Assembly: GCA_017478205.1 (NCBI GenBank)
Contig: JAFVDZ010000045.1
Location: 1,080-65,079, forward strand
Direction: 5' to 3'
DNA: 64,000 nt
Origin: Spirochaetales bacterium
GTDB lineage: Bacteria; Spirochaetota; Spirochaetia; Sphaerochaetales; Sphaerochaetaceae
Shown: positions 13,193-33,652 of the stretch, one piece after another
Layout of the letters: the number at the start of each line of letters is the position of its first letter
Numbering within the stretch: the stretch's first letter is position 1
Translations under genes and position numbers: made by a program
The notes under the pieces: generated by a model
What the model was told of the DNA's origin: nothing
The model's database searches: none
The model's input: only the letters and a program-made list of their open reading frames with translations

Positions 13193-13239
13193 ACACGTAT
13201 TATAACGCAATTTTCTATGTTGGGACATTCAACTGCTAG

Positions 13240-17334: not shown

Positions 17335-17495
17335 GTTAAATCATACTAACTTTTATAAAAAATGTACTTGATATTCCTATTTACTTGGTGTATGTTAGTT
17401 ATAGCTAACTTATTGAAACTGATTTCACTCCTATTGTTGTTGTTTGTTTGGAACTTTCTCTTGAAATTACGTTTATAAAGTTAGTGCATACTAAC
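17335..17495. promoter_or_regulatory. Three GTTAG-N6-CTAAC palindromic operator boxes around the DUF3793-flavodoxin promoter
   Basis: GTTAAATCATACTAAC (17335-17350), GTTAGTTATAGCTAAC (17394-17409) and GTTAGTGCATACTAAC (17480-17495). Promoter TTGATA-17-TATGTT at 17368-17396. Confidence 0.75.
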
Positions 17496-17510
17496 AAACA
17501 AGGAGGGGAT

Positions 17511-18050
17511 ATGACACTAGAAAGGCTGCTGGTAACAAATTCAGCCCCTACTCTGGCCAACATGAAGTGTTCGTCATTGATATGCCTCAAGGGACTGAAT
17601 GGAGCAGTGGAAAGTGTCGTTGCCCGTCTGGAGAAGAAGGGATTGAAATTCCGCTTCTTATCAAGCCACTCTGGCAATCCTCTCCTGTTTGTCTTTCGCC
17701 AATCAGAGCTGATGGATGCAATAAGATCCAAAGAAGCTAGCACATATCTTGAAAGTATTGGTTACGATACATCCAATCTTGAATCCTGTCTTTCTCTTCT
17801 CGAGAAAAGACTGCATGAAGAGGATTTTCCTCACGAGATAGGTTTCTTCTTGGGATACCCAGCAGAGGATGTCCTTCAATATATAAAGGAAGATGGACGA
17901 AATTACATTTCTTCAGGTCTTTGGAAGGTCTATACAAACAAAGAGAAGGCTGAAAAGACCTTCATGAAATATGAGAAGTGCAGAAAGGTATATATGACAC
18001 TTTTTGCAAATGGATTTTCAATCGACAGGCTGTGCATACGCACTGCCTGA
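17511..18050 (+). CDS. DUF3793 family protein
   Basis: SAPTLANMKCSSL, FPHEIGFFLGYP and WKVY motifs; adjacent to flavodoxin as is usual for this family. Confidence 0.9.
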   Translation: MTLERLLVTNSAPTLANMKCSSLICLKGLNGAVESVVARLEKKGLKFRFLSSHSGNPLLFVFRQSELMDAIRSKEASTYLESIGYDTSNLESCLSLLEKRLHEEDFPHEIGFFLGYPAEDVLQYIKEDGRNYISSGLWKVYTNKEKAEKTFMKYEKCRKVYMTLFANGFSIDRLCIRTA

Positions 18051-18066
18051 TAGGAAGGAGAAAAAT

Positions 18067-18471
18067 ATGAAGTCTTGTGTAGTATTCTATTCTACAACAG
18101 GTAACACAGAGGCGATGGCTAATATTGTCGCTTCAGCTGCAGGTGTTGAGCTTATCAACGCTGATAGCTTCACACCTGATATGGTTGCAAACTATGATGC
18201 AATCGCATTTGGTTGCCCAGCAATGGGTGAAGAAGTCCTTGAAGAGGATGTATTCGAGCCAATGTTCACAGCAATCGAAGGATCTCTCAGTGGCAAGAAA
18301 GTTGCTCTCTTCGGTTCCTATGGTTGGGGTGATGGAGAATGGATGAGAAACTGGGCTGATAGAGTAAAGGCTGACGGTGCTGAACTGCTTTGTGAGCCAG
18401 TAATTTGTCAGGAAGCTCCAGATGCTGATGCAGAAGCATCTCTCAAGGATCTTGCTGCAAAGCTTGCTTGA
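18067..18471 (+). CDS. Short-chain flavodoxin
   Basis: STTGNT FMN loop, GCPAMGEE, FGSYGWGDGEWM. Confidence 0.95.
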   Translation: MKSCVVFYSTTGNTEAMANIVASAAGVELINADSFTPDMVANYDAIAFGCPAMGEEVLEEDVFEPMFTAIEGSLSGKKVALFGSYGWGDGEWMRNWADRVKADGAELLCEPVICQEAPDADAEASLKDLAAKLA

Positions 18472-18487
18472 TTTATTGTGCTTTATT

Positions 18488-18511
18488 ATCCGCCGGTGAA
18501 AATCGGCGGAT
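18488..18511 (+). terminator. Intrinsic terminator after flavodoxin
   Basis: ATCCGCCG/CGGCGGAT stem plus TTAT. Confidence 0.7.
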
Positions 18512-18617
18512 TTATATCGCAAAAAAAAGCGTAAAAATATATTGACACTTTGAATAGTTTGGTTCATTATCTCATACGTTGATTGCGCTGGTAATGTACA
18601 CCGGACTTTCACACAAT

Positions 18618-18690
18618 GGTGGAAGTAGTTCAGTGGTAGAGCGCCAGATTGTGGATCTGGTTGTCGAGGGTTCGAACCCCTTCTTCCACC
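18618..18690 (+). tRNA. tRNA-His(GUG)
   Basis: Cloverleaf, anticodon loop TTGTGGA, genomic G-1, discriminator C. Confidence 0.95.
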
Positions 18691-18710
18691 CACACCTTAC
18701 TAAGGTAAGG

Positions 18711-18784
18711 GCGCTTGTAGCTCAGCTGGATAGAGCGTCGGACTTCGAATCCGCAGGTCGTAGGTTCGAATCCTACCGGGCGCG
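18711..18784 (+). tRNA. tRNA-Arg(UCG)
   Basis: Cloverleaf, loop CTTCGAA, GGTTCGAAT T-arm. Confidence 0.93.
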
Positions 18785-18802
18785 AGAGATTTTTGAAAAC
18801 AT

Positions 18803-18875
18803 GGGCCGCTAGCTCAGCTGGTAGAGCAACAGACTCTTAATCTGTGGGTCAAAGGTTCGATCCCTTTGCGGCTCA
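18803..18875 (+). tRNA. tRNA-Lys(CUU)
   Basis: Cloverleaf, loop CTCTTAA. Confidence 0.95.
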
Positions 18876-18886
18876 TATTACACACC

Positions 18887-18967
18887 GCGAGAGTGGTGAA
18901 ATTGGCAGACACGCTAGATTTAGGTTCTAGTATCTCAGATGTGCGGGTTCAAGTCCCGCCTCTCGCA
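18887..18967 (+). tRNA. tRNA-Leu(UAG)
   Basis: Cloverleaf with long variable arm, loop TTTAGGT. Confidence 0.93.
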
Positions 18968-19005
18968 GAGATTGGCTGAAGTCTAATGATGTAAGCCTAA
19001 AAATT

Positions 19006-19077
19006 GCGGAAGTAGCACAGTGGTAGTGCTCCACCTTGCCAAGGTGGATGTCGCGGGTTCAAGTCCCGTCTTCCGCT
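19006..19077 (+). tRNA. tRNA-Gly(GCC)
   Basis: Cloverleaf, loop TTGCCAA. Confidence 0.95.
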
Positions 19078-19125
19078 CTACAGACTCTAAGGAGTCAGTC
19101 AGATGAGAGTTCTGACAAATCTTCC

Positions 19126-19198
19126 GGGCCGATAGCTCAGCTGGTAGAGCAACAGACTCTTAATCTGTGGGTCCAAGGTTCGATCCCTTGACGGCTCA
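19126..19198 (+). tRNA. tRNA-Lys(CUU), second copy with A7:A66 mismatch
   Basis: Cloverleaf, loop CTCTTAA; acceptor GGGCCGA/ACGGCTC. Confidence 0.9.
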
Positions 19199-19205
19199 AG
19201 CATAT

Positions 19206-19277
19206 GCGGAAGTAGCACAGTGGTAGTGCTCCACCTTGCCAAGGTGGATGTCGCGGGTTCAAGTCCCGTCTTCCGCT
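19206..19277 (+). tRNA. tRNA-Gly(GCC), identical second copy
   Basis: Identical to 19006-19077, 200 bp downstream. Confidence 0.95.
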
Positions 19278-19284
19278 CTAGAGT

Positions 19285-19323
19285 AAATCCTTCTGGTAAG
19301 AAATTACTGGAAGGATTTCTTTT
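19285..19323 (+). terminator. tRNA operon terminator
   Basis: AAATCCTTCTGGTAA-GAAA-TTACTGGAAGGATTT stem plus CTTTTT. Confidence 0.8.
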
Positions 19324-19360
19324 TGTCCTCAAATACCTGTTTATCTTCATGTAAGAACAC
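19304..19360 (-). pseudogene. Truncated AbiEii-like toxin stub (first ~12 codons)
   Basis: GTG start with GGAG RBS overlapping the antitoxin stop. Reads MFLHEDKQVFED (typical LHEDK start of DUF6088-paired nucleotidyltransferase toxins), then runs into the terminator. Confidence 0.55.
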
Positions 19361-19967
19361 TTGTCAACTCCATATCGTAGATTGCCTTGTAGGTTCTGAG
19401 CGGATAGCTCGGAAGAATCTTGTCCACCATGTTCTTTCTTATTCTATTCTTTGCGATATAGTTTTTCAAACACTCCGAGGAATTGATGTGGGAGTCGGAC
19501 AGATCATCAATGTCTTTGAGAACCTCAAGCAGCATAACTGTCTTTACGTTTTCCCTTGTTATCGTTACAGGCGATTTTCGGACAACATAACTGAATTTGC
19601 CTACCTTGACCTTTCTTGTGATTGCACTTGTGTTATTGCTTACAATCTCCTTTACCTGCGGAACCTGCTCCGAAAGACCCATCATGTTTGCAAGGGTATG
19701 ACCGGTATAGCAGCCGTAATTGTTTGTCTTGTTGCTGAGATACTTGAGCTCGGCTACTGTATCTGCATTGAGAGTATAAGGCACACCGGACACGGTCTTC
19801 CTGGGAAGATAATAAACACCATCCATATAACGGCAGAGACTGCCTTCATCTACCAGTTTCTTCATCTGCTGGCAAAGGTTGTCATACTTAATATCAAGTT
19901 CAAGGTTCTGCAGGAGAATTGGTTCTCCCGGCTTGTAGTTCTCTTTGATATAGTCCAGCAGCATCAT
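19347..19967 (-). CDS. DUF6088/AbiEi-like type IV antitoxin (wHTH)
   Basis: YIKENYKPGEPI, GVYYLPRK, TGHTLANMMGLSEQVP and VKTVMLLEVLKD match the family pattern. Confidence 0.8.
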   Translation of the reverse strand: MMLLDYIKENYKPGEPILLQNLELDIKYDNLCQQMKKLVDEGSLCRYMDGVYYLPRKTVSGVPYTLNADTVAELKYLSNKTNNYGCYTGHTLANMMGLSEQVPQVKEIVSNNTSAITRKVKVGKFSYVVRKSPVTITRENVKTVMLLEVLKDIDDLSDSHINSSECLKNYIAKNRIRKNMVDKILPSYPLRTYKAIYDMELTSVLT

Positions 19968-20220
19968 TCAGCATCCTTAATAATACTAATTAACTTTGCT
20001 GATAATATACAACACAAAATCTTCATTGACAAGTGCTTCGGCAACCAGGGGAAACAGGTCGAGAAAAAGATAACAATATTCATCAAAAACCGTCAGATTC
20101 CATGCCTCCCCGTGGCTAACAAGTAGAGGGTCAGTCAACCGGCTCTCTGTGGAGTCCTGAAAAGTGGGAAGCTTGGGGGTGTTTTTTCAATTACTGGAAG
20201 GATTTTTTTGTAGTGGGCTA

Positions 20221-22470
20221 TTACAGACTTGTTTTCTTATGAACTTCTATCCATTCAGGATCAGTCTTCTTCTTTCCTCTTTTAGGTGATGAGTTTGAAA
20301 GTGTTACAAGAAGGATGGAGTGACGCCAGAAAACACTCTTGCCAGCAAGCTCCTTAAGAAGGATTGCTCTATACTTATCTACTTCTGCTTTAGAAAGAGT
20401 GAGATGCTTCAAATAGCTCTTATCCCACCAATTTCTTAAAGTTTCCTCATCAAGCAATCTCTCTTCCTTCTGGCTGAGCTCTTGTTCTTCCACATGAAGA
20501 AAGGCGTTAGAGAAGAATGAAATCATGTCGAACTTGTTCCAATTGGTCATTGGGTTTTCGCTATCGTGGTAAACTTTCTCTTCAGCTTTTTCAAGCAGGG
20601 CCTTAAGATTTTCATCCTTGATAAATTCAGATAATGTGCTTCCTTCTGAAGGCATACCCTCAGAAAGATTTATCTGTCCATCATCTGAAAGATGCTCTTT
20701 CAGAGTGTGGAGCAACTCTTCCTCTTCATATAGTCGTGTAAAGAGATTGCGGGCAAAGACGAACTCGAATTTGAGGTCGCTGTCCATTTTCTTTAACACA
20801 TCGAGTGCCTTTCCAACTTTGATTTCTGGTCTTGAAAGCTCTTCTAGCTGCTTTGAATAGTGATCGATATATTCAAATTCGCTCTGGTTCTTTACCTGGG
20901 CAAATGTAAGACCTTCAGGATTGTGCTTCAATGCTTCCCAGACAAGAAGTCCATGGGATGCATTGAGAACAAGGATATTGTCGCTTCTCCTGATATTTGC
21001 CTTTCCAAACAACCTATCACGAATATCGAGAAGGAGATTGGAGCCCATGGATGAAGTTCTCTGAATCCACTTGTCCTTCACCTTATCCTTGGGTGTGAAT
21101 GTGAGGTTCTCGACAAAGGCATCCTCGCTTGCACTTTCTATCTGTGCCTCTCTCTTTCTTTCAACTTCATCCTTGATCTTGGCTTCATATCCCTGGTCTG
21201 AAGGACGGTAATAGACCTTTCCCTGTAGACCATTTGGAAGATATTGCTGATTTACCCAGTGGTCCTTATATGCGTGAGGGTACAGATATCCTTCACCGTG
21301 TCCAAAGGCTTCGCTATCACGGCTTGCATCCTTAAGATGGTTGGGAACCTCCGATGCCTTTTCCTTTTCGACATCTGAAAGGGCATCGAAGAAGGCAAGT
21401 GCACTATTACTCTTCTTTGCAGTTGCAAGGTATAAAGCAGAGTGGGTGAGGTGGAAACGTCCTTCAGGAAGGCCAATTCTATCAAATGCAGCAGCATCTG
21501 CCTCGACTACAGAGACAGCCATCGGATCTGCAAGACCGACATCCTCAGCTGCACTGATAAGCATCCTGCGGAAAATGAATCGAGGATCTTCTCCTGCTGC
21601 GATCATTCTGGCCATCCAATAGAGGGCAGCATCTGGGTCGGAGCCACGAAGGGATTTGATGAATGCCGAAATGACATCGAAGTGGTAATCACCTTCCTTG
21701 TCATAGAGGACGACCTTTCTCTGGATCGATTCCTCACAGGCTTCCTTCGAGATGAATATCTTCTCTCCCTTTTCAGGGGGGAAGGTGCTTGGTGTGGTCT
21801 CAACAGCAAGTTGGAGAGCATTCAGAAGACTTCTTGCATCTCCAGATGCAACATCTACAAGGTGTTCGAGGGCACCTTCTTCGAATTCGATATCAAAGTT
21901 TCCATAACCCCTTTCCTTGTCCTTGAGAGCCTGAGAAGCAACCTTCATCAGATCTTCAGATGTCAGTTTTGTCAGCTGGAAAACTCTAGAACGGGAAACA
22001 AGGGCTGCATTCACTTCAAAATAAGGGTTTTCAGTTGTAGCCCCGATCAATATGAAGGTTCCATTCTCGACCCAGGGAAGAAGTGCATCCTGCTGGCTCT
22101 TGTTCCAGCGATGTACCTCATCGACAAAGAGGATGGTCCTGTTTCCATAATGGTCCATCCTGCTTTTTGCAGCATCTATCTCATATCGCAATTCCTTGAC
22201 ACCTGATAGAACTGCATTGAGTGTGGAAAAGTGACTTTTTGTTGTGTTTGCAATGACACGTGCAAGTGTTGTCTTACCAGTTCCAGGTGGGCCATAGAAA
22301 ATGACGGAGGAAAGAAGGTCTGCCTGTATTGCTCTCCTTAATAGTCTTCCCTTACCGATGATGTGTTCTTGCCCGATATATTCATCTAGAGTGCGAGGTC
22401 TCATGCGGTAGGCAAGTGGCTGGTTTTCGTTGTTTTCATTTGCACTGAAAAATAGATCGTCTCTGTCCAT
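20221..22470 (-). CDS. rarA: Replication-associated recombination protein RarA/MgsA with C-terminal methyltransferase-like extension
   Basis: [46 protein letters not shown] and EDVGLADP, plus about 290 extra C-terminal residues. Confidence 0.92.
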
Positions 22471-22471
22471 G

Positions 22472-23131
22472 TCACTTAACCTTTCTATATCTTGTACTTA
22501 CTTCATTGTCACCAAGCAGTGTGAAGTACTCATCACGTGCCCAGTGGGATAGCTCTGAAACTGTTGGTTCTACTATCTCATCTACAATCTTCGTAATCCC
22601 AACAAGAGAAAGATTTTCCAGATTTGCTTTCCAGTTGTCAGCAACTATCTTCATTTCTGCGTATATGCTATCAAGTTCTGCCTTATGCTCTTCTATGGTT
22701 CTTGATATGATCAGAAGCGTTCTCTCTCTACTTTCACCTATGAGTATAGCAGAGATGCTCACATAGCCTGAGCTGATATACTCATCTGGGTTGGTAAAGT
22801 CTACATTCTCAAGTTCATCTAGAAGGAGTACAGAGATTTCAGGGATGCAAGATGATAAGATTTCTGATAGCTTGGCTCTGTAATCATCTTCAAGACTTCT
22901 GAATTCAGCTAACTTTTCTTCATATGGCCTGAATGTGCTGTTGAAGTTGTAATTGGCCTTTTCGGAAAAGGCCAGTCTGTCAGTCAGGAAGATTGCATCC
23001 TCGACACTTGTTATAAGCAATTCTCTCTGCTTTTCTTCCTTCATCAGATCGCGCTCAGAATTCTTTTTTACTGACTGGCAGCCAGCAAGAAGGATAATAA
23101 TCAACAAAAGATAGAGAAAACGCCATTTCAT
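22472..23131 (-). CDS. Putative lipoprotein (weak DUF4197-like)
   Basis: MKWRFLYLLLIIILLAGC lipobox. Confidence 0.65.
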   Translation of the reverse strand: MKWRFLYLLLIIILLAGCQSVKKNSERDLMKEEKQRELLITSVEDAIFLTDRLAFSEKANYNFNSTFRPYEEKLAEFRSLEDDYRAKLSEILSSCIPEISVLLLDELENVDFTNPDEYISSGYVSISAILIGESRERTLLIISRTIEEHKAELDSIYAEMKIVADNWKANLENLSLVGITKIVDEIVEPTVSELSHWARDEYFTLLGDNEVSTRYRKVK

Positions 23132-23184
23132 GCTTTGAAGTATAGCATTAGCGACATAATTCAGAAATATTGAGTTGTGTACTT

Positions 23185-23676
23185 TCAATGTGATTTTTTA
23201 TCAAGGAATGTCAGCAGGAACTCTTCAGCAAGAGAGCCATGGGCTATATTCCTTCTTGCTTCCTCGAATGTAAACCAGGTAGCTAGATCGACTTCCTTTG
23301 TTATCCCTGATAGGTCCTCTGTGTCTGCTACACAGTAGAAATTGTTCATCAAAGTGTTGCTCTTTTCAAAGAACTTGGATTTGTTGAAGGTTATTTCACT
23401 TGCATCAAGACCAATTTCTTCCTTCAATTCTCTTGCGACAGCATCCTCAGCTGCTTCTCCTCTGTTGATGTATCCTGCAACCAGAATATATCTGTCGCGA
23501 CCATATTGCTTTATCAAGAGGATCTTATCCTTTTTGGGGCTGAGAACGACCATGGAGACAGCACTGTTGAAAATAGGGAACCTGAATTCATTGCAATTTG
23601 GGCAGTAGGGTATTTCACCTTCGTTTTCAAGATACTTTGTTACTAGCTTAGTTCCGCATTCGACACAATATTTCAT
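23185..23676 (-). CDS. NUDIX hydrolase with N-terminal zinc ribbon (NudC-like)
   Basis: CVECG...CPNC ribbon; GYINRGEAAEDAVARELKEEIG Nudix box. Confidence 0.9.
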   Translation of the reverse strand: MKYCVECGTKLVTKYLENEGEIPYCPNCNEFRFPIFNSAVSMVVLSPKKDKILLIKQYGRDRYILVAGYINRGEAAEDAVARELKEEIGLDASEITFNKSKFFEKSNTLMNNFYCVADTEDLSGITKEVDLATWFTFEEARRNIAHGSLAEEFLLTFLDKKSH

Positions 23677-23782
23677 AGGGGATGGGGCTCCTTCATAAAA
23701 ATAACACCTTGAAAAATGGTCAAAGTGTCCAATATTGAGTATATTAAATAGTATAACTTCGAAATAGAAAAGGAGAGTTTAA

Positions 23783-24490
23783 ATGAACGATTCCAGAAGT
23801 AATATACTATCCAATGTAAGTGCACGTGAAAATGGACTTCTAAAAAGTGTCTATTCATTTATGTCCCTTGGCCTTTTTGTAACAGCAATCGTAAGCTATC
23901 TTGCATCTAGAAGCCCGGCTGTGATGAATATTTTCCTGAGAAACCCAATGGGAACACTTGTTCTGGTCTTTGCCCAGTTCGGTCTTGTGTTCTACCTCTC
24001 AGCTAGGATAGAGACAATGAGTAGAGAGAATGCAATTATTGCATTCTTCGCATATTCTGTTCTAACTGGCCTCAGCCTCTCAGTTATCTTCCTTGTCTAC
24101 ACTGCAAGTGTGATCTATCAGGCATTCCTTTCCTGTGCTTTGATGTTTGGTGTTACCAGCATATTTGCTGCAACAACAAAGAAGAATATCGCATCTTGGG
24201 GCAACTACCTCACAATGGCACTCTTTGGACTTATCATCGCATCCATTCTCAACATGTTCTTCAGAAGCAATGGTATGACAATGATGATTTCCCTGCTCGG
24301 CGTAATAATCTTCGTTGGCCTCACAGCTTGGGATACACAGAAGATTGTCCAGATGAACAGACGCTATGGTGATGTTATGAGCGTAGATGAGTATACAAAG
24401 CTCGGTATCCTTGGTGCTCTAGAGCTCTATCTCGACTTCATCAACATCTTCCTCTATCTCTTGAGAATCTTTGGTAACAGACGTGATTGA
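23783..24490 (+). CDS. Bax inhibitor-1/YccA family membrane protein
   Basis: Seven hydrophobic segments; GLTAWDTQKI and ALELYLDFINIFLYLLRIFG. Confidence 0.93.
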   Translation: MNDSRSNILSNVSARENGLLKSVYSFMSLGLFVTAIVSYLASRSPAVMNIFLRNPMGTLVLVFAQFGLVFYLSARIETMSRENAIIAFFAYSVLTGLSLSVIFLVYTASVIYQAFLSCALMFGVTSIFAATTKKNIASWGNYLTMALFGLIIASILNMFFRSNGMTMMISLLGVIIFVGLTAWDTQKIVQMNRRYGDVMSVDEYTKLGILGALELYLDFINIFLYLLRIFGNRRD

Positions 24491-25145
24491 AATAGTTTCC
24501 CAAACCGATGATTATCTTGTAGTCTTCAAGCCATCCGGTCTTCCTACGGCCCCTCTCAAGAATCAGGAGGGGGATAGCCTTGTAAAAGAGGTTTCTGAGT
24601 TCTTTCCTCAAATTATGAGTGTCCATGGAAGACAGGAGTGGGAAGGCGGTCTTCTTCATCGCCTTGACACTCCAACTTCAGGTCTTGTCCTGATCGCTTT
24701 GAAGCAGGAGTTCTACAATAGCATATTAAAGCAGCAGGATAGGGGAGACTTCCAGAAGCTCTACAGAGCAACGATATCAAAGAGAGCAGAAAAACTAGAG
24801 GGTTTCCCTCTCTTTGAATTCCCTCGTCGTCTAGATGGTGTTGTAATTGAAAGTGCCTTCAGAACCTATGGGCCAAAAGGTGCCCAGATAAGGCCTGTTA
24901 CAGGGCCTAAAGCAAAGGGGCTCTTGAGATATGAAACCTATGTGGAAAGAGAGAGTGCAGACACATATCTTTGCACATTGAAAAAGGGTTTCAGACACCA
25001 GATCAGAGTTCATATGGCCTGGAGTGGCAGACCACTCTTGGGCGATACAATCTACGGTGGTGAAAAGTCAGATACATTCGGCCTAGAGGCCATAGCTATG
25101 ACATTCTATGGCCTTAATGGAAAGAGAGTGGAAGTTTCTATCTGA
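24483..25145 (+). CDS. RluA-family RNA pseudouridine synthase
   Basis: KPSGL, HRLDTPTSGL catalytic Asp, GFRHQIRVH, LLGDTIYG. Start at GTG 24483, or TTG 24471. Confidence 0.9.
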   Translation: MIEIVSQTDDYLVVFKPSGLPTAPLKNQEGDSLVKEVSEFFPQIMSVHGRQEWEGGLLHRLDTPTSGLVLIALKQEFYNSILKQQDRGDFQKLYRATISKRAEKLEGFPLFEFPRRLDGVVIESAFRTYGPKGAQIRPVTGPKAKGLLRYETYVERESADTYLCTLKKGFRHQIRVHMAWSGRPLLGDTIYGGEKSDTFGLEAIAMTFYGLNGKRVEVSI

Positions 25146-25149
25146 TTTA

Positions 25150-25350
25150 TCACTCCTTGAATGGTTCTACAGAGCCATCTTCCTTGACAGCCTCGACCTT
25201 GCGTCTTACCTCTTCCAGGGTCTTCGAAAGCTTCTTCGAGAGGCTACTTGCCTCCTCGTAGAGCTTGAGGCTTTCTTCAAGTCCAGTCTTATCGTCCTTC
25301 AGGACTTCAGTAATCTCTTCAAGTCTCTTGAGATCTGTTTCAAAGCTCAT
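25150..25350 (-). CDS. xseB: Exodeoxyribonuclease VII small subunit
   Basis: SFETDLKRLEEI...LEESLKLYEE; adjacent to xseA. Confidence 0.93.
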   Translation of the reverse strand: MSFETDLKRLEEITEVLKDDKTGLEESLKLYEEASSLSKKLSKTLEEVRRKVEAVKEDGSVEPFKE

Positions 25351-26744
25351 TTCTTTTCTCCTTTATAGCTTACCTTGATATTTCCATTCTTCATAAGGAT
25401 TGTAAGTTCATCATCGACCTTTAATCCCTTCTTGCCTGTAACAACATGACCCTTGTCATCCTTTACTATTGCATAACCCCTTGAAAGCACATTCATTGGA
25501 GAGAGGGATTCCAGATTCGATATACACTTTTCAAGTCTCATTGAAATGTTTCCAAGTTTCATATCAAATCCCTGTGAAACATCCTTTTTGGCCCTTGCTA
25601 TCATTTCTGGGTATCTTTCAAGTTTTGTTTTTCCTTCTCTCTCTATTTGATCCGATAGATAGTTGAAGCTATCTTTTGCTCTATTGTATTTCACTTTAAG
25701 AAGTGAAAGAGGTGTATCTGATGCATAGACGAATCTGAGTTCAAGAGAAAAAAGCTTTTGAGAAAGCATTCTGAAAAGATCACTTTGGCTCACAAGGGAA
25801 ATTCTTTCACTCTTTCTCATCATGATGGCAGAGAGATATTCCATATCGACAAAGTGGCTCTGAGCTTGATGAAGCTTTGCTATTATTGCAGAACGCAATG
25901 TGTTTTCCACATTCTTGATCTCTTCACGGCGCTTGAATATTCCTTCTGTTGCAATTACTGCTGCATCAGTTGGAGTAATTGCTCTTCTATCTGCAACATG
26001 ATCTGAAAGCGCCCAGTCAATTTCATGGCCTACTGCAGAGATAACTGGAATTTCACTTCTGTAGATTGCTTCGATTACTTCCGGTTCAGAGAAAGGAAGT
26101 AGGTCCTCCTGGCTTCCTCCTCCACGGCCAACAATGAGGACATCACAGAAGGGAACTTCGTTTGCCTGATCTATCCTTGCTGCAATCATCTCTGCGGCAG
26201 TTTCACCCTGAACTAGAGTAGGGTAAAGCAGGATATCAACCCCTGGGGCTCTTGTTAGTGTTGTGTCTAGAATATCGTGTATAGCAGCTCCCGTGCTTGC
26301 TGTAACAACGCCAATAGTTTTTACAATTTCAGGAATCGGCTTCTTCTTTTCCATGTCGAAGTAGCCTAGGCTTTCATAGTAGGCTTTTCGCTTTTCAAGC
26401 TGTGCCTTGAGATCTCCTTCTCCTGCCTTCATCATCACAGAGACAACAAGTTGATATGTTCCTCTTGGAACGTAGACATCGATGTTGCCGATGGCAACAA
26501 CCTTGTCTCCTTCCTTTGGGACTCCTCCCAATCGTGCATTGAAGGAGCGGAACATTACACATGACAGCTGGCTCTGGCTATCTTTCAGCGTGAAGTACCA
26601 ATGTCCGTTTGCACTCGGCTTGAAAGACGATATCTCTCCCTCCACAGATAGATTGAAGAACTGTGTCTTGAAGGTTTCCTTTATGATTTCATTCACTTCA
26701 TGCACCATCAATGGGTGATCAAGCAGAGCATTCTCATTGGCCAT
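25347..26744 (-). CDS. xseA: Exodeoxyribonuclease VII large subunit
   Basis: VEGEISS, GHWYFTLKD, GRGGGS, SAVGHEID, TPTDAA and LSRGYAIV. Confidence 0.97.
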   Translation of the reverse strand: MANENALLDHPLMVHEVNEIIKETFKTQFFNLSVEGEISSFKPSANGHWYFTLKDSQSQLSCVMFRSFNARLGGVPKEGDKVVAIGNIDVYVPRGTYQLVVSVMMKAGEGDLKAQLEKRKAYYESLGYFDMEKKKPIPEIVKTIGVVTASTGAAIHDILDTTLTRAPGVDILLYPTLVQGETAAEMIAARIDQANEVPFCDVLIVGRGGGSQEDLLPFSEPEVIEAIYRSEIPVISAVGHEIDWALSDHVADRRAITPTDAAVIATEGIFKRREEIKNVENTLRSAIIAKLHQAQSHFVDMEYLSAIMMRKSERISLVSQSDLFRMLSQKLFSLELRFVYASDTPLSLLKVKYNRAKDSFNYLSDQIEREGKTKLERYPEMIARAKKDVSQGFDMKLGNISMRLEKCISNLESLSPMNVLSRGYAIVKDDKGHVVTGKKGLKVDDELTILMKNGNIKVSYKGEKK

Positions 26745-27028
26745 AGCTTGATTATATCAAATTTAGGCCAAGTGAAAGAAGATGGATTGAGGGAACAATC
26801 GATTCAACTAGCAGTTGATTTTTTTATCTTTGGACGTCGTGCAAAAAAAGGAAAAAGGAAGAAATTGAAAGAACAAGAGATAGAGAAGTGAATCAAAATC
26901 CTCTGAAAAATCAGGGGATTTTTTAATGCTTATATGTTAAGGAAATATAGAATGTGAGAAAGCGTCTAGATAAGGAAGAATGTAAGAGTGAAAATCCTTT
27001 ATTTATATAAAAGAGATAGGATTAAGGA

Positions 27029-27077
27029 TTGACAAGAGGTTGAGTCTATTGCCACTATACAGTTAGAGATTGCTAAC
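27029..27077 (+). promoter_or_regulatory. Promoter (TTGACA-18-CACTAT) with a perfect GTTAG-N6-CTAAC box over the predicted start site
   Basis: GTTAGAGATTGCTAAC at 27062-27077, 20 nt before the Tp47-like start codon. Confidence 0.7.
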
Positions 27078-27096
27078 ATTATATAAGGAATACAAC

Positions 27097-28833
27097 ATGA
27101 AAATAAATCTCCGCAATACTACATTTTTATTCGTTGCACTGATTATTCTGTGCTTGGTTGGTTGCTCAAAAACTGGTAGCACTGGAAACACTACTACATC
27201 AGTTGCTCCTGAGTCTCTTGTCATAAAGGCAACGGTTGTTGAACCTGAATATCTTTATGGCTATGCGCCAATGACATTTGCAGAATTCTGGTATGGTGAA
27301 ATCAACAAGGTGGAAAAGGTCGACACTTTCAATTCCTCAAATCCTGACTTGACAGCCATGTCTGAAGAGTATCTCCATTTTGGCTATAGCAGTGCAGATG
27401 ATATGGACCGCTATGCAGGCGTTCAGAAGAACACCTGGGATAATGATAGTGGAATGTATGACGCTATCTCCCGTGCAACTTTTGGCTATGGACTCTTCCG
27501 TGCCGGATTTGCTCACATTGTCAAAGTTACTATGGACAATGGGGATGAAAAGATCATGAGCCACGAAATTGTGGAAGATATGACTTCTCCTACTGGTTAC
27601 CGCATCGATCTCAACACTGAGAACGTAGAAGGTATTGTCCTCACAGACAATACTCGTCTTGATACAAAAAAGACCATGGGCTATACACCTGATACAAATA
27701 CTACCTATGCAAATAGCGTTGCAAACGGAGGTGGTGGATATAGGATTGTTGGTCTCAAGAGGGTTCCTGTAAAAGTAAAGAGTTCTACTGTTGGTAAGGC
27801 TCTGGAGATGCAGAAGTCCGGAATGGTCAATGACCAGGTAAAGGCATTCCTTGACCAGTATGAGAAGATTTCATTCGAAGATGAAGCAAAGGCATATGCA
27901 TACAAGGAGCTTTATGCGAATGGAATCTATGGTGAAAGAGAGATCAACGAAAATGCATCTGTGAAGGATCCTGGCATGGTCGCTCTTGGTGATGGCAAAA
28001 ATGGAACAAAGGCTATCGCACATGGAGATGGATATGCAGATCTCACAATGTTTGTCTACTATGATAATTACGAAGGATACACTCGTGGTTCTGTAGGCTC
28101 TCTTGATGAAGCAACACTCGACACTCTCTATTCTGGAACAGATAAGCCAACTTATGCTGAAAACAAGGAAAATGCAGATAAGCTTGCTGCCTTCATGGAT
28201 TATGCATTGCATTTCCAGGGCGCAAAGCTCCAGTGGGCAGGAGAGGACAATGTTTTCGATACTGCAGATGATGTAGTTGTTGGCCAGATGCTTCACAAGG
28301 ATGCATACTACTCCTTCAACCATGGAAACTATATCGAAGTCTCGATTACTAATGATTTTGAACGTTTTGGCAAGCTTGGAAATGGATTCTATCGCATTAC
28401 CATGATTGCAGATGGCTACAAGGATGTCATGCTCGAGACAGGTAGCCTTCTCCTTGATTACCACACACCAACTATCGTCGATGAAGATGTTCCTGCTGTA
28501 GGATTTTCAAAACTCCTAAGCCTCCAGCTCGATATAGAAGGTGTAAAGGTCTCACTTGATGAGAATGTACAGAATGCATATATGGAAGGATTGGAAAATC
28601 CTGATAACTACAGCCTTTACTTCATGAAAGGATCTGGAAGAAGAGCTAAGGCTACAACAGTATGCGACAAGGCACATCTTGTTTTGATCGATGACAATAT
28701 CTTTACAATTACTTTCAATGTAAGGGGTATTGAGGAACTTACTGAAGATATCCATTACTTTGTCAAGATTGATACTGGTGTAGAAGGAATTGCTCCTTCT
28801 AACGTAGAATTCCACTATGCACCAAAGGATTGA
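27097..28833 (+). CDS. Tp47-like lipoprotein (homologue of the Treponema pallidum 47-kDa lipoprotein)
   Basis: Lipobox LVGC. Collinear motifs match my recollection of Tp47: YGYAPMTFAEFWYGE, GMYDAISRATFGYGLFR, GLKRVPVKV, FMDYALHF, FERFGKLGNGFYRITMIADGYKDV. Confidence 0.8.
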   Translation: MKINLRNTTFLFVALIILCLVGCSKTGSTGNTTTSVAPESLVIKATVVEPEYLYGYAPMTFAEFWYGEINKVEKVDTFNSSNPDLTAMSEEYLHFGYSSADDMDRYAGVQKNTWDNDSGMYDAISRATFGYGLFRAGFAHIVKVTMDNGDEKIMSHEIVEDMTSPTGYRIDLNTENVEGIVLTDNTRLDTKKTMGYTPDTNTTYANSVANGGGGYRIVGLKRVPVKVKSSTVGKALEMQKSGMVNDQVKAFLDQYEKISFEDEAKAYAYKELYANGIYGEREINENASVKDPGMVALGDGKNGTKAIAHGDGYADLTMFVYYDNYEGYTRGSVGSLDEATLDTLYSGTDKPTYAENKENADKLAAFMDYALHFQGAKLQWAGEDNVFDTADDVVVGQMLHKDAYYSFNHGNYIEVSITNDFERFGKLGNGFYRITMIADGYKDVMLETGSLLLDYHTPTIVDEDVPAVGFSKLLSLQLDIEGVKVSLDENVQNAYMEGLENPDNYSLYFMKGSGRRAKATTVCDKAHLVLIDDNIFTITFNVRGIEELTEDIHYFVKIDTGVEGIAPSNVEFHYAPKD

Positions 28834-29296
28834 AAGTAAGGGCAATATCCCAATTCTTTACAGATGGGCTATTACAATTTCAGTCATTCTATTTCTTGTA
28901 ATCTATCAGCTGGGGATAAGAACATCCCCAGCTGAAGCTTCAATATCACCAATTGAAGTAACTAAAACTGAAAAAGCAATGAAAATGGACGAAACAGAGG
29001 AGATTGTAGAAGCTATCACATCTGGCCCATATCAAGATGGTGAGTATGTAGGATCTTCAGATGGCTACGGTGGGCCTGTTGTAATCAAGTTGTCAATTGA
29101 AAATGGTTGGATTAAAGATATCACTATCGATGAAGCATATGGAGAGGGTGTTGCTTATCTTAGGGATGCAAGAAAACTGCTTCCTCGAGTAATCGAAAAA
29201 CAGAATACAGATATCGATGCTGTAAGCGGTGCAACTGTAACAAGTTATGCGATTCTGGATGCAATAGATGCAGCGCTTTTTGAAGGTAATAGATGA
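28817..29296 (+). CDS. Membrane-anchored FMN-binding domain protein (ApbE substrate)
   Basis: N-terminal TM, YQDGEYVGSSDGYGG, DAVSGAT flavinylation motif (29216-29236). Confidence 0.92.
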   Translation: MHQRIESKGNIPILYRWAITISVILFLVIYQLGIRTSPAEASISPIEVTKTEKAMKMDETEEIVEAITSGPYQDGEYVGSSDGYGGPVVIKLSIENGWIKDITIDEAYGEGVAYLRDARKLLPRVIEKQNTDIDAVSGATVTSYAILDAIDAALFEGNR

Positions 29297-30165
29297 AAAG
29301 GAATATCCTTAAAATGATAGGGCAGTGCGTTCGTCCACTGAGTCAGATTATATTCTTCATTCTCTCGCCAGGTTTGTTCTCTTCTGCTTTCAGCGCTGTA
29401 AAGACAGTTGCTTCCCAGATTGCCAAAAGACAGCCACTTGAGATGAGTACAGCAATTCTTACGCTGTTGTTTCTGCTTGCATTTACATTTGTTTTTGGCC
29501 GATTCTTTTGCGGTATGGTCTGTAGCTTTGGTGCTCTTGGTGACCTTGTATTCTCTCTCGGTGAAGCAGTAAGAAAAAAGTTCAAGATAGGGAGAATCAA
29601 GTTGTCAAAAAGAGGCGAGTACATACTTTCATATCTGAAATATATCATTCTGCTGTCGATAATTATAATCAGCTACTTACAGATGCAGAGACAACTTCAT
29701 GGCAAGAGTCCTTGGGATGCTTTTGCCACATTGATAAGTGGTTCACCTAGATTCAGAGGATATGAAGTTGGATTTGTCATCTTGTTTTTTCTAATTATTG
29801 GGATGGGGTTAATTCCTCGCTTCTTCTGCCGATTCTTCTGTCCTCTTGGAGCTATATTTGCCATCTTGCCACCACCTCTAATTCCTCTAAAGAAGCCTGC
29901 TAAGGCATCCTTGATTCATAGAGCATGTGGTGGTTGTCAGATTTGTACAAAGGCCTGTCCTGCAGGTCTTGATCTAAATAAAATGGAGAGCCCAATGGAT
30001 GTAGTCAGGAGTGGAGAGTGTTTTCGCTGTATGAAGTGTGCTGAAGTCTGTCCTCAGAAGAAACCAGCCCTACATCTACTTTCTTTGAGACTTCCTCTAA
30101 TTCCCGCTATCGTTTTGATACTTCTTCTTTTCATTATCTTGCTAAAAGTCTTTGGCCTAATTTGA
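29293..30165 (+). CDS. Membrane 4Fe-4S-binding polyferredoxin (NapH/MauN/NosR-type Fer4_5)
   Basis: GRFFCGMVCSFG and FCRFFCPLG CxxxCP motifs, two CxxCxxCxxxCP motifs, several TMs. Confidence 0.9.
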   Translation: MKRNILKMIGQCVRPLSQIIFFILSPGLFSSAFSAVKTVASQIAKRQPLEMSTAILTLLFLLAFTFVFGRFFCGMVCSFGALGDLVFSLGEAVRKKFKIGRIKLSKRGEYILSYLKYIILLSIIIISYLQMQRQLHGKSPWDAFATLISGSPRFRGYEVGFVILFFLIIGMGLIPRFFCRFFCPLGAIFAILPPPLIPLKKPAKASLIHRACGGCQICTKACPAGLDLNKMESPMDVVRSGECFRCMKCAEVCPQKKPALHLLSLRLPLIPAIVLILLLFIILLKVFGLI

Positions 30166-30183
30166 TTACAGGGGACCACCTTC

Positions 30184-31188
30184 ATGAAAGTACAACTACT
30201 ATTTCTTTTCCTCTTTATTGCTATCCTGACAGGGTGCTCAAATAAAGTGGAACGCAATATTTTTGCTATGAATACTCATATGAGTATTACCTGCTATGGC
30301 CGTCAGGCAGAAGGAGCCTGTCAGGCTACAATTGAGGAAATAAAGAGACTTGATGATTTACTCTCTATTGGAAAGCTTGATAGTGAAGTCAGTATTCTCA
30401 ATGCATCTGGAAGAGGAGTTCTTTCGGATGATACCAAGACATTGCTTGAGTTCTCTCTTGCTATGTGGGAAAAGACTGACAAGGTATTCGATGTCACTAT
30501 CTATCCCTTGATGGAGAAGTGGGGCTTTATATCAAAGAACTTCAATGTCCCAGATGATGATTCCATTCGTGAAGCATTGGATCTGGTAGGATTGGATAAA
30601 ATTGAATATAACAGCGCTACAGGAGAGATTGTTCTTGCACCTGGCCAGAAACTAGATTTTGGAGGTATTGCCAAAGGCTATACTTCTGATCAGATTGGAA
30701 AAATCTTGTCAAGATATAAGATCAAGGGAGCAATTGTTTCCCTTGGTGGCAATGTCCAAGTATATGGAAAGAAACCAGACCGGAAACCTTGGCGCTGTGG
30801 GATCCAAGATCCATTTGCTCATGAGAGAAACGCTTCTGTCCTGGGAGTTGTAACTGTTGATAATGAAGCTGTGATAACATCTGGAGCATATGAACACTTC
30901 TTTACCGATGAGAGTGGTAGGATATACCACCATATTATAGATACATCCACAGGATATCCTGCAGAAAGTGATCTTGAATCAGTTACGATTGTAAGTAAGA
31001 GTGGAATTCTTGCAGATGTACTCTCAACTTCTTGTTTCATACTTGGCCTTGAGGGCTCAAAAGCTTTGTGGGAGCAATATGATAGATCGTTTGATATGAT
31101 TCTGATGACAAGTGATGGAACTGTGTATATCACAGCTCCTCTTGAGAATCGATTCAAAACAGATCGCAAACTAAGGATTTTGAGATAA
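30184..31188 (+). CDS. apbE: FAD:protein FMN transferase ApbE (lipoprotein)
   Basis: LTGC lipobox, FAMNT, LDFGGIAKGY, VSLGGN, TSGAYE, YHHIIDTSTGYP and ADVLST. Confidence 0.95.
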   Translation: MKVQLLFLFLFIAILTGCSNKVERNIFAMNTHMSITCYGRQAEGACQATIEEIKRLDDLLSIGKLDSEVSILNASGRGVLSDDTKTLLEFSLAMWEKTDKVFDVTIYPLMEKWGFISKNFNVPDDDSIREALDLVGLDKIEYNSATGEIVLAPGQKLDFGGIAKGYTSDQIGKILSRYKIKGAIVSLGGNVQVYGKKPDRKPWRCGIQDPFAHERNASVLGVVTVDNEAVITSGAYEHFFTDESGRIYHHIIDTSTGYPAESDLESVTIVSKSGILADVLSTSCFILGLEGSKALWEQYDRSFDMILMTSDGTVYITAPLENRFKTDRKLRILR

Positions 31189-31257
31189 ACTTAATAGTTA
31201 TTCAGACGTTGTGGATAACTGAAAAATGAAGAGTTAACGACAAACGAAACTACGTGT

Positions 31258-32580
31258 CTATTCTACTTCTAGTATGTTGATGCTCTTCTTTTTCAATAGG
31301 AATGCATATGCACAAGCTGAAACAACGCTGTCAAATGCATTGCCGATTCCAAAGAGGAGCGCAATTCCTATTAGGCTAGGGCGCCAAACTCCATTTAGAT
31401 ATAGAATGAATGCTGTTCCATAATAAATTGTGTTAGTTACGACTGATTCAAACAGCATGTAGTTTGTTTTACCAAGAGCATAGAATTCTGAGTCAAAGAC
31501 ATTCTGGATTGCATATAGTGCATAGAATCCAAGGAGAATCATTACTAGCGTGAAAAGTTTGTCTACATCAGTAAACTGAAGGATTGTGACCATGAAACCT
31601 TTCCAGAAAGGAATAGTGATGACCCATACAAGAGTGATGATAATTGTCAATGCAAGATAACCAAGAGTGTTATTTTTCACTGCTTTTTCATCTGTGCTGA
31701 TTTCTTGTTTGATGAGTTCTCCAAGTTGATTTACTGGAAGTAGGAGCCATCCCCAGATAAAGCTGTTAGCAACCCAATAGGTTCCCTGTTCGTTTACCAT
31801 ATTGACCATCCTACTGATCATAAGAATATAGGCAATATTTCTTATGAAAGATTCAAGGCCAGAAATTCCTCCTATCTTCAAAAAGTCCTTTGCCCAGGTA
31901 AATGAAAGCTTGCTCCTATTGAAGATAGGGTAACCTTCCTTTGCAAGCAGACTCAGAGATACAAGCAGCAAAAGAATGTTGACAATTATATTACTGAATC
32001 CTATTCCATTTACTCCAAGGTTCAGAGATATGTTTAGATTCGAAACGAAGAATGTATCGAAAACAATGTTCAAGACCATTCTTGCAATGGTCAAAGAGTA
32101 TACATATTTCGATTTCCCGAGTGTGATGAGGCAAATCGCAATATAGTTTGCTAGCAGCGAGAATATATTGGCGATACTTTCAATCCTGATGTAGACACTG
32201 GATGCATCAATTATATCTTTACTTGTTGCCATCAAGGACAAAAGTGGATAGGTGAAACAACATATGAGTAATGAGCAAGTAGCATAGACACAGAAGCTGA
32301 TGATCATTCCAGTCTTTATACGATTTGTATACTCTGCCTTGTCTTTTACAACCTTTCCCATGAAGAAGTACAGAGGGAGGATGATTGCTTCGCTCAAGAT
32401 TTCATATATCAGGTTAACCCAGGAGAGCTGCCCTGCGATGGAAAATGACCAAGTTCCAGGTAGCTGACCTAAAAGGAACACTCGTACAGTTGTGTAGATT
32501 GTTGGACATAATCCCAAGATAAGAAGTGAAAAGAAAAGCTTCCAATTCAGATTACTTAGCGATTTTATGATTTTATTCAT
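31258..32580 (-). CDS. MATE-like multidrug efflux membrane protein
   Basis: About 12 hydrophobic segments in two repeats; GISGLESFIRNIAY and YWVANSFIWGWLLLP. Confidence 0.8.
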   Translation of the reverse strand: MNKIIKSLSNLNWKLFFSLLILGLCPTIYTTVRVFLLGQLPGTWSFSIAGQLSWVNLIYEILSEAIILPLYFFMGKVVKDKAEYTNRIKTGMIISFCVYATCSLLICCFTYPLLSLMATSKDIIDASSVYIRIESIANIFSLLANYIAICLITLGKSKYVYSLTIARMVLNIVFDTFFVSNLNISLNLGVNGIGFSNIIVNILLLLVSLSLLAKEGYPIFNRSKLSFTWAKDFLKIGGISGLESFIRNIAYILMISRMVNMVNEQGTYWVANSFIWGWLLLPVNQLGELIKQEISTDEKAVKNNTLGYLALTIIITLVWVITIPFWKGFMVTILQFTDVDKLFTLVMILLGFYALYAIQNVFDSEFYALGKTNYMLFESVVTNTIYYGTAFILYLNGVWRPSLIGIALLFGIGNAFDSVVSACAYAFLLKKKSINILEVE

Positions 32581-32650
32581 ATCCTTAGCCCCACCAAACA
32601 TAAGAATATCAACGACAAGGTAGTCTAGTAAATAAATGAAAATAAAAATC

Positions 32651-32725
32651 TAACTCGGTTTTAACTCGGTTTTAACTCGGTAAATCGAATTAAAATAATT
32701 TTAACTCGATGAACCCGAGTTAAAC
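32651..32725. repeat. Cluster of six TTAACTCG-type motifs in mixed orientation
   Basis: (TAACTCGGTTT)x~3 at 32651-32681, an inverted degenerate copy at 32684-32695, a direct copy at 32699-32710 and an inverted copy at 32716-32725. Confidence 0.8.
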
Positions 32726-32875
32726 TTGCTTGTTAGAAGTATGAGAAAGGGGATGTAGAAACTTTCTTGGAGCACTTAACTCTAGCTGTCATCAGTAGCC
32801 ATGAGAACTCAGCCATCCCAACGACTACTTGATTCTCCTTCCTTTGTGTCAATGTCTGTAGGGTAGAAGAGAACT

Positions 32876-33187
32876 TCAATCTACTGCCCAGCCATCATCG
32901 ATCATGTCCTCAATGGTTTCGTATGCTATATCAAATTCTGTCCCTCTTGGTCCTTTGATCGGATGATATTCCTTGAATGTGAAAAGGAACATCTCCTTGT
33001 CCTGGTCTTCTTCTGGGAAATCCTTTTTGTAGCTCCCAAAATTGAGAAGATGCCAATTCAAGGCATATCTTTCACCTTTATTTCCTATATGTGTGACAAG
33101 TCCAAAGCCCCATGCTGCAAAATGGTTTCGTGTTGCATCAATGAGAGTTTTGCTCCACTCCTGTGTTATTCTATAAATGCTGCTAAT
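32876..33187 (-). pseudogene. 5'-truncated hypothetical gene remnant
   Basis: The 61-aa ORF frame stays open for 104 codons (ISSIYRITQEWSK...DMIDDGWAVD) with no ATG or RBS, up to the ferredoxin terminator. Confidence 0.45.
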
Positions 33188-33250
33188 TTATGTAAAAAAA
33201 AGACCGATACTTGAAATATCGGCCTTATAACAAATTGATGTAGAAATCTA

Positions 33251-33418
33251 TTACTCTTCTACGATTGCACCTGTTGGGCAAGCGCTTGCGCAGGAACCGC
33301 AGCTGAGGCATTCATCAGCGTTGATAGAATAGATATCTCCCTCAGAGATAGCGCCAACTGGGCATTCGCCAGCACATGTTCCACATGCAACACATGAATC
33401 AGTAATTCTATAAGCCAT
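33251..33418 (-). CDS. fdx: Clostridial-type 2[4Fe-4S] ferredoxin
   Basis: MAYRITDSCVACGTCAGECP...CLSCGSCASACP. Promoter TTGACA-17-TATCAT upstream; terminator at about 33195-33225. Confidence 0.95.
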   Translation of the reverse strand: MAYRITDSCVACGTCAGECPVGAISEGDIYSINADECLSCGSCASACPTGAIVEE

Positions 33419-33556
33419 AATATCACTCCTTTGAAATGATTTGGTTGTTTGTTTATACCTAAATGATAGGAATCGCAAGAAAGAATGTCAAGCAGAAATA
33501 GAAAAATTTTTTTATTATTAATTCCTTTATATATAAAGAGATAGCTGAATAAAAAA

Positions 33557-33596
33557 GTTGCATTTTGCTAACTCATCCAAGTTAGTTTTAGCTTAC
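33557..33596. promoter_or_regulatory. Two degenerate GTTAG-N6-CTAAC boxes between fdx and topB
   Basis: GTTGCATTTTGCTAAC (33557-33572) and GTTAGTTTTAGCTTAC (33581-33596). Confidence 0.45.
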
Positions 33597-33652
33597 TTTC
33601 TGCATGGCTTCTCTAGTTCACTGTTTTTTGTATTTCTGCTATCCTCAAATCC

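Follow-up and report, generated by a model that had tools for sequence, protein, structure and literature searches.

Which protein, answering to which signal, acts on a short palindrome that recurs ahead of a flavodoxin operon and a Tp47-like lipoprotein operon in a gut spirochaete? The question arises from a stretch of 64,000 nucleotides of a Spirochaetales bacterium (contig JAFVDZ010000045.1, C71:1080-65079; here called the window), in which a first-pass annotation, made from the letters alone, had noted copies of GTTAG-N6-CTAAC and had proposed that they mark an iron regulon under a metal-dependent repressor. We followed this up across the assembly (1.9 Mb in 98 contigs, 41.8% G+C, 91% coding) and in related and unrelated genomes. 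Judged from sequence comparison, a slightly longer form of the palindrome, GTTAGC-N4-GCTAAC (GTTAGCNNNNGCTAAC), is probably the operator of an iron-responsive regulon run by the only DtxR-family protein that the genome encodes.

A scan of the window with GTTAG-N6-CTAAC (ten fixed bases) returned three perfect matches, where 0.02 are expected and none of 100 shuffles gave three; they lie exactly where the annotation had placed them. Three degenerate copies had been named beside them. The six sites, none of which is assigned to a strand, are:

17394..17409: putative operator box B, GTTAGTTATAGCTAAC; perfect 10-base match, one mismatch to the 12-base consensus described below
17480..17495: putative operator box C, GTTAGTGCATACTAAC; perfect 10-base match
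27062..27077: putative operator box, GTTAGAGATTGCTAAC; perfect 10-base match
17335..17350: degenerate box A, GTTAAATCATACTAAC; differs from the 10-base pattern at one position and from the 12-base consensus at three
33557..33572: degenerate box, GTTGCATTTTGCTAAC; two mismatches, in the fdx-topB intergenic region
33581..33596: degenerate box, GTTAGTTTTAGCTTAC; one mismatch, in the same intergenic region

All of these copies are intergenic, given that the true ATG of the DUF3793 gene is at 17511. The degenerate ones do exist, with one, two and one mismatches, but as a class they are not enriched: the window holds 16 sites with up to two mismatches where 19.3 are expected, and the whole genome has only eight one-mismatch sites, four of them intergenic. 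The copies at 17335, 33557 and 33581 are thus backed by context only, and their role as operators is not established. Another two-mismatch site, GTTAACAAATGCTATC at 13239-13254, lies 11 nt from the start of a minus-strand open reading frame (ORF) of 121 aa and is probably a chance match.

Genome-wide, the 10-base pattern occurs perfectly 14 times, always between genes, as against three to six copies in this genome for control palindromes of the same composition. Alignment of the 14 sites yields GTTAGC-(A/T-rich N4)-GCTAAC with A/T flanks, in which the arms are fixed and the central four base pairs are free to vary. The refined 12-base pattern has six perfect and seven one-mismatch sites, all 13 intergenic; third-order Markov simulations predict 0 and 1.0, respectively. 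Boxes occur as isolated 16-mers or as tandem copies 24 to 100 bp apart and are spread over at least 11 unrelated loci. The canonical TTAGG-N4-CCTAA is absent from the genome, and an alternative flavour that we considered, GTTCG-N6-CGAAC, was dropped with its single copy.

Could the palindromes have arisen by chance, or be a dispersed repeat, or work as hairpins at the RNA level, rather than serve as protein operators? The box does form a 6-bp stem with a 4-nt loop in folds of 5' leader RNA, and the control palindromes too are present three to six times. We nevertheless regard this as highly improbable, given that every strong site is intergenic in a genome so largely coding, that the arms are fixed around a variable centre, that several boxes lie upstream of a −10 or over a −35 hexamer and hence would be untranscribed, and that the box is conserved across phyla ahead of functionally linked genes (see below).

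The annotation had predicted that a genome-wide scan would find the motif ahead of feoAB and other iron-uptake genes, and such hits were obtained; the box lies 14 to 80 bp from the starts of feoA, FTR1 and FecCD and also precedes further transporter genes. The boxed targets outside the window (the first five identified with Pfam) are:

C88: feoA-feoA-feoB
C53: FTR1, P19 (Iron_transport) and an FtrD-like gene
C95: ABC importer with FecCD, ATPase and Peripla_BP_2 components
C95: nifH/nifDK-like operon, divergent from a HydA-like gene
C27: two pairs of ABC exporter genes
C21: ABC system with an NMT1-like binding protein
C80: SBP_bac_5 binding protein
C60: NuoE/NuoF-like genes
C87: short-chain dehydrogenase, divergent from a GNAT acetyltransferase gene
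C51: leucine carboxyl methyltransferase-family (LCM) gene

One of these loci deserves separate mention. At C95:19480-23948 a box separates the HydA-like (Fe_hyd_lg_C) gene from the three-gene nifH/nifD/nifK-like operon, beside the boxed FecCD importer, which would place a nitrogenase-like reductase, surprisingly, under iron control.

The association between box and gene extends well beyond this genome. Among spirochaetes, 13 of 18 genomes of the same genus have the 12-base box, as do two of six of the same family (both outside the genus) and only one of 16 from other families of the class; reversed-pattern controls across these genomes are nearly empty. It stands ahead of DUF3793 genes in four same-genus genomes (G006, G008, G013 and G017), although the proteins are only 41-48% identical to that of the window, and ahead of feoAB in G006 and G017. 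In the closest relative, G005, boxes precede FecCD and nifH-like operons, a NuoE-like gene, an NMT1-like system and the Tp47 operon.

A wider search, with a DUF3793 alignment as the query and one genome per species, yielded 80 DUF3793 loci, ten of them spirochaete and the remainder mostly from Clostridia (Lachnospiraceae, Oscillospiraceae, Christensenella, Clostridium leptum). At least one box (no more than one mismatch in 12, within 600 bp upstream) precedes the gene in 48 of the 80, as compared with three of 74 control windows. A flavodoxin homologue accompanies DUF3793 in 59 loci and feoA or feoB in at least 12, and a Fur homologue was found in none of the 80. Tandem boxes in the clostridial loci are often 33-38 bp apart (L121, L053, L060, L081, L090). 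Boxes are thus enriched, intergenic, placed on promoter and ribosome-binding positions of iron genes, and conserved ahead of orthologues across spirochaetes and Clostridia.

In one clostridial locus (L121, G074:C40) three boxes lie between a dtxR gene bearing the ligand residues and a divergent DtxR-like paralogue that lacks Cys-x-x-Glu-His. The feoA-feoA-feoB operon of the present genome (C88:11455-14338) is nearer to clostridial copies than to same-genus ones (loci compared: L094, L099, L027, L035): FeoB is 70% identical to the clostridial protein and 52-63% to same-genus FeoB, and the FeoA proteins are 83-86% identical to clostridial FeoA. This similarity suggests that the boxed feo operon was recently transferred between phyla.

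The annotation had attributed the boxes to a DtxR/MntR/TroR-like regulator, rather than to Fur, encoded outside the window. The genome fits this proposal, with a single protein matching PF01325 and PF02742:

C24:1964-2338, minus strand: sole DtxR-family protein, 124 aa (PF01325, E = 2.6e-10; PF02742, E = 3.9e-15; both above cut-offs)

The protein consists of a winged helix and a dimerisation and metal-binding domain, and ends at residue 124 without an SH3-like domain; its gene is solitary, with no ABC-transporter or troABCD genes beside it on C24. A weak PF01325 match within the window (62138-62473) was rejected as a lysine-rich winged-helix fragment that is not DtxR. The two Fur-family proteins of the genome look like PerR and Zur, since the gene of one adjoins rubrerythrin/desulfoferrodoxin and that of the other a znuABC-like operon with a His-rich ZnuA-like protein.

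Boxes co-locate with dtxR-like genes. At 15 loci or more, homologues of the regulator that are 40-56% identical, including those of Christensenella sp. MSJ-20 and Clostridium minihomine, are preceded by a box no farther than 300 bp away; with only one to eight perfect boxes per 2-3 Mb genome, this recurrence is not due to chance. The loci are:

L084, L117, L121, L128, L132, L138, L145, L146, L164, L165, L166 and L167: dtxR-like gene with its own box
L161 and L162: the same, in two same-genus spirochaetes with a second DtxR subtype
L091: the same, with the gene immediately upstream of a boxed DUF3793 operon

These data also bear on whether some other regulator binds the box, such as the TetR-family protein encoded next to the box at C27:1418 or an unrecognised factor, the dtxR-like genes being targets only. 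The TetR gene is immediately upstream of one box, and similar small genes occur by boxes and ABC exporters in relatives; the dtxR gene of the spirochaete's own lineage has no box (see below), and the position of IdeR Gln43 varies (R, V, I, H) among homologues that share the box. However, TetR genes are found only at the ABC-exporter boxes, out of at least 11 unrelated boxed loci, and the pentamer and its spacing match experimentally defined DtxR-family sites (PMC8464063; PMC10783522). Together with the recurrence at dtxR-like genes and the lack of Fur homologues at the 80 DUF3793 loci, this makes another binding protein quite unlikely. The same variation led us to reject a Gln43-to-Arg change as the reason for the inner-base swap from CCTAA to GCTAA, since homologues that carry V, I or H there have the same box; IdeR Q43A retains DNA binding (PMC8464063).

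What metal would the protein sense? Its closest solved relatives are the MntR proteins of Bacillus subtilis (E = 2e-12) and Escherichia coli (E = 2e-11), and its top NCBIfam matches are MntR equivalogs. In an alignment with B. subtilis MntR, residues D7, E10, H78, C101, E104 and H105 correspond to D8, E11, H77, E99, E102 and H103. A regulon of the MntR type, with the same operator and the same DtxR-family protein but with Mn(II) or several divalent metals as effector, and with iron transporters among its members, would agree with these relationships, with the two-domain architecture lacking SH3, and with Asp7 and Glu10. It agrees less well with the boxed genes, which include feoAAB, FTR1-P19, a FecCD importer and flavodoxin, and, among the annotated targets, neither an Nramp nor a typical manganese importer. 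The MntR equivalog cut-offs are widely missed (87.6 bits against 153, and 74.1 against 138), and Glu99, characteristic of manganese-type MntR, is replaced by Cys101, whose equivalent is present in every listed box-linked homologue. Cys101-Glu104-His105 is what we take to be the counterpart of DtxR/IdeR C102-E105-H106, and the recognition helix presumably keeps Ser-x-Pro-Ser. Sulfur ligands have been tied to Fe(II) selectivity (review, PMC11672702), and in IdeR the Ser-x-Pro-Ser positions contact thymine (PMC8464063). Manganese or mixed sensing therefore seems to us an unlikely alternative, if a less remote one than a different binding protein. For the iron-responsive DtxR-type operator that we favour, it is inferred from the evidence above which protein binds in this genome, that Fe(II) is its effector and that control is by repression.

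Within the window, the operator would act on two operons. The first consists of:

17368..17396, plus strand: predicted sigma-70-like promoter TTGATA-17-TATGTT (consensus scan, 9/12 positions)
17511..18050, plus strand: DUF3793 protein, 179 aa, first gene of the operon (Pfam PF12672, E = 1.8e-51)
18067..18471, plus strand: short-chain flavodoxin, 134 aa (Pfam PF00258, NCBIfam flavodoxin models)

As the annotation had it, the box at 17394 (box B) overlaps the −10 hexamer; it takes in the 3' end of this hexamer and also covers the predicted start site. Box C ends 4 nt ahead of the DUF3793 Shine-Dalgarno sequence. The degenerate box A lies 18 nt upstream of the −35 hexamer. The layout of one box at the promoter and another abutting AGGAGG is repeated in five spirochaete loci (L037, L041, L042, L043, L049), and the promoter-proximal box is kept in the DUF3793 loci of relatives; this conservation upholds the proposed membership of the flavodoxin operon in the regulon.

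Spirochaete DUF3793 leaders have a further feature. In four of them (L037:2391-2505, L043:2383-2505, L045:1691-1822 and L049:2396-2505) a hairpin lies between the promoter box and the box near the ribosome-binding site; its stem varies by species, its CU-rich loop GGUCCUUCUCUCC is constant, and in L037 a T-run follows it. Its possible roles include those of an anti-Shine-Dalgarno element, an attenuator and a small RNA. The corresponding leader in the window (17410-17479) is without a clear hairpin (z = -0.28) and contains CACUCCU at 17427-17433, which is able to pair with the Shine-Dalgarno sequence. Rfam returned only tRNAs over the window and no riboswitch at the boxed loci; a cluster of seven tRNA genes (18619-19277) directly follows the flavodoxin gene.

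The second operon comprises four genes whose ORFs overlap or nearly abut:

27097..31188, plus strand: four-gene operon
27097-28833, plus strand: Tp47-like lipoprotein (Pfam PF14889)
28817-29296, plus strand: FMN-binding protein (Pfam PF04205)
29293-30165, plus strand: NapH-like membrane 4Fe-4S protein (Pfam PF12801, NCBIfam NapH/MauN-like)
30184-31188, plus strand: ApbE flavin transferase (Pfam PF02424, NCBIfam ApbE)

The box at 27062 lies 20 nt upstream of the Tp47-like ATG and immediately after a TATACA hexamer. The annotation had set it over the predicted start site. A TTGACA at 27029-27034 is separated from TATACA by an unusual spacer of 21 nt. In the alignment with G005, both this TTGACA and the box are conserved blocks. 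Among 41 spirochaete genomes, the Tp47-like gene and its operon were found only in the present one and in G005. Homologues elsewhere (L169-L175) carry SLH (S-layer homology) domains in three cases or have FMN_bind/Fer4_5 gene neighbours, and GTTAG-type boxes are found at promoters of Tp47-like genes in other lineages. Box conservation in G005 and in these lineages thus supports the inclusion of the Tp47-ApbE operon in the regulon. The Tp47/ApbE module resembles a mobile unit for flavin-based electron transfer outside the cytoplasm and is possibly a ferric reductase.

With an iron-loaded repressor as the working model, one dimer of the Fe(II)-bound protein would occupy each box, its two recognition helices reading the pentamers TTAGC and GCTAA, which are inverted and have 4 bp between them. 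In the case of DUF3793-flavodoxin, the box over the −10 hexamer and start site would block initiation, and the second box, abutting the ribosome-binding site, would probably work as a roadblock; at the Tp47-like/FMN-binding/NapH-like/ApbE operon, a single box would cover the start region. When iron is scarce the repressor would leave the DNA, and flavodoxin, the Tp47/ApbE module and importers for ferrous, ferric and chelated iron (feoAAB, FTR1-P19-FtrD and the FecCD ABC system, respectively) would be expressed together.

Several observations weigh against this interpretation. In 12 spirochaete genomes no box was found closer than 1.5 kb to the regulator gene, so autoregulation in the own lineage was discarded and the link between protein and box depends on homologues that are 40-56% identical. 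The position of DtxR Met10 is Asp7 in the regulator, which, with MntR as the closest solved relative, makes manganese or mixed metal sensing possible; Met is found at this position (ESGEMYLE) in many of the box-linked homologues from Clostridia. The protein scores under the NCBIfam cut-offs for both MntR and DtxR and thus belongs to no curated equivalog. At the Tp47 operon, a simple consensus scan called no canonical promoter before 27062. The boxed genes include iron-rich enzymes (NuoE/NuoF-like, HydA-like and the NifH-like operon), for which repression at high iron is not the expected iron-sparing logic; at these genes the protein may act as an activator, or the box may serve the divergent gene. 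IdeR, for comparison, activates storage genes (PMC11672702). Lastly, same-genus genomes without perfect 12-base boxes bear another DtxR subtype together with one-mismatch boxes. For that reason we dropped co-occurrence within the genus as a main argument, even though perfect boxes are present in 13 of 15 genomes with a close regulator orthologue and in three of 25 without one: the motif-poor genomes have the other subtype, with one-mismatch boxes upstream of its gene. A phyletic test in 50 Clostridia-type genomes was uninformative, 47 of them having a homologue.

The annotation had also counted fdx and topB as members of the regulon. The features of this region are:

33251..33418, minus strand: 2x[4Fe-4S] ferredoxin (fdx), 55 aa (Pfam Fer4, NCBIfam FdxA_fam)
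33491..33463, minus strand: predicted fdx promoter TTGACA-17-TATCAT (promoter scan, 11/12 positions)
33653..35902, plus strand: DNA topoisomerase III, topB (Pfam PF01131 and PF01751, NCBIfam topB)

This part of the proposal was not supported. Both boxes are degenerate, only one half-site is conserved, and the distance to either promoter is large: the box centres are about 108 nt (33557) and 132 nt (33581) upstream of the predicted fdx start, and relative to the start of topB, which is likely to be leaderless, they lie upstream by about 88 and 64 nt, respectively. That half-site belongs to the 33557 copy, which keeps the right half GCTAAC; a GTTG-N6-GCTAAC-like element is found in the same place in L150, L153, L154 and L155. 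The 33581 copy has no counterpart in 11 orthologous intergenic regions and probably has little function or none. Membership of fdx/topB is not established. As an aside, a −10-like TATCCT at 33640-33645 lies 7 nt before the topB ATG (region 33617-33655), relatives L152 and L155 have TAGAAT 7-8 nt ahead of theirs, and topB appears from these sequences to be translated from a leaderless mRNA.

Most likely, then, the box is an ordinary kind of control element, DtxR/IdeR-like in character and common to gut spirochaetes and Clostridia; what is new from the window is its presence in a spirochaete lineage, with signs of transfer between phyla. A broader view, which we offer tentatively and with rather less confidence than we have in the operator itself, is that a small two-domain DtxR protein acting on single-dimer boxes serves as master regulator of iron in many gut Clostridia and in a Sphaerochaetaceae-like spirochaete lineage, where it would have the part that Fur plays in species examined to date; that its regulon moves between phyla with the target operons; and that it has recruited the Tp47/ApbE module for extracytoplasmic flavin electron transfer, possibly ferric reduction, induced by iron starvation. 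If true, a one-dimer DtxR-type box ahead of feoAB, flavodoxin and importers would span uncultured gut spirochaetes and many Clostridia, and would serve as a ready-made marker of iron-starvation genes in metagenomes. It would also give a physiological context, the low-iron response, to two families that lack a known function: DUF3793, and the Tp47-like lipoprotein together with the ApbE module. Cultivable carriers of the box include Christensenella sp. MSJ-20, Clostridium leptum DSM 753 and C. minihomine.

Searches of the literature on the motif, on DUF3793 and on clostridial DtxR proteins returned no description of the box or of DUF3793 regulation, but well-studied systems offer close parallels. 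The 19-bp IdeR box, TTAGGTTAGSCTAACCTAA, consists of four CCTAA repeats, with one dimer on repeats 1 and 3 and a second on 2 and 4; in vitro, one dimer binds a half-site (PMC8464063). From this layout the one-dimer unit is TTAGG-N4-SCTAA. The present box resembles it in having inverted TTAGS/SCTAA pentamers 4 bp apart as the one-dimer unit (PMC8464063). It differs in being a single-dimer site, without the 19-bp arrangement of four pentamers and two dimers, in the swapped inner base (TTAGC/GCTAA) and in the conserved flanking G...C. IdeR/DtxR represses iron uptake from boxes on promoters, the role predicted here also. The proteins presumably share the Cys-x-x-Glu-His ligands and the Ser-x-Pro-Ser/Thr residues of the recognition helix, whereas the present regulator has no SH3-like domain and has Asp in place of Met10, giving a hybrid ligand set, and it comes from low-GC gut anaerobes and a spirochaete, where IdeR and DtxR come from Actinobacteria.

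A second parallel is TroR of Haloferax volcanii, a DtxR-family master iron regulator that represses iron uptake when iron is sufficient and whose motif, TTTAGGC-NNN-CCTAAA, is often in tandem about 30 bp apart (PMC10783522). It shares with the present system a single semi-palindromic box, the pentamer spacing and the tandem arrangement, seen at 33-38 bp in clostridial loci; it is unlike it in being archaeal, in its inner base, and in the position of its boxes, some 100 nt ahead of start codons and in the setting of archaeal promoters. The TroR proteins of Treponema pallidum and T. denticola are likewise metal-dependent DtxR-family repressors of spirochaetes with an operator at or near the promoter (PMC2628430). 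The tro operator, however, is an unrelated 18-bp dyad upstream of troA (mutated form, AGCTTCATATTTCAAAAT), and T. denticola TroR is encoded in troABCDR and has an SH3-like domain (PMC2628430), whereas the regulator here is solitary and two-domain, with no troABCD neighbour. MntR of B. subtilis and E. coli is the closest solved relative and has the same two-domain architecture and similar length; the differences lie in the missed equivalog cut-offs, in the exchange of Glu99 for Cys, and in the boxed genes, which are those of iron rather than manganese. In the clostridia and proteobacteria examined to date, iron operators are usually Fur boxes. Like these, the present box would keep feoAB, flavodoxin and iron importers repressed at high iron, but protein family and motif are unrelated, and the iron genes of this spirochaete share the GTTAG box in place of the AT-rich Fur box.

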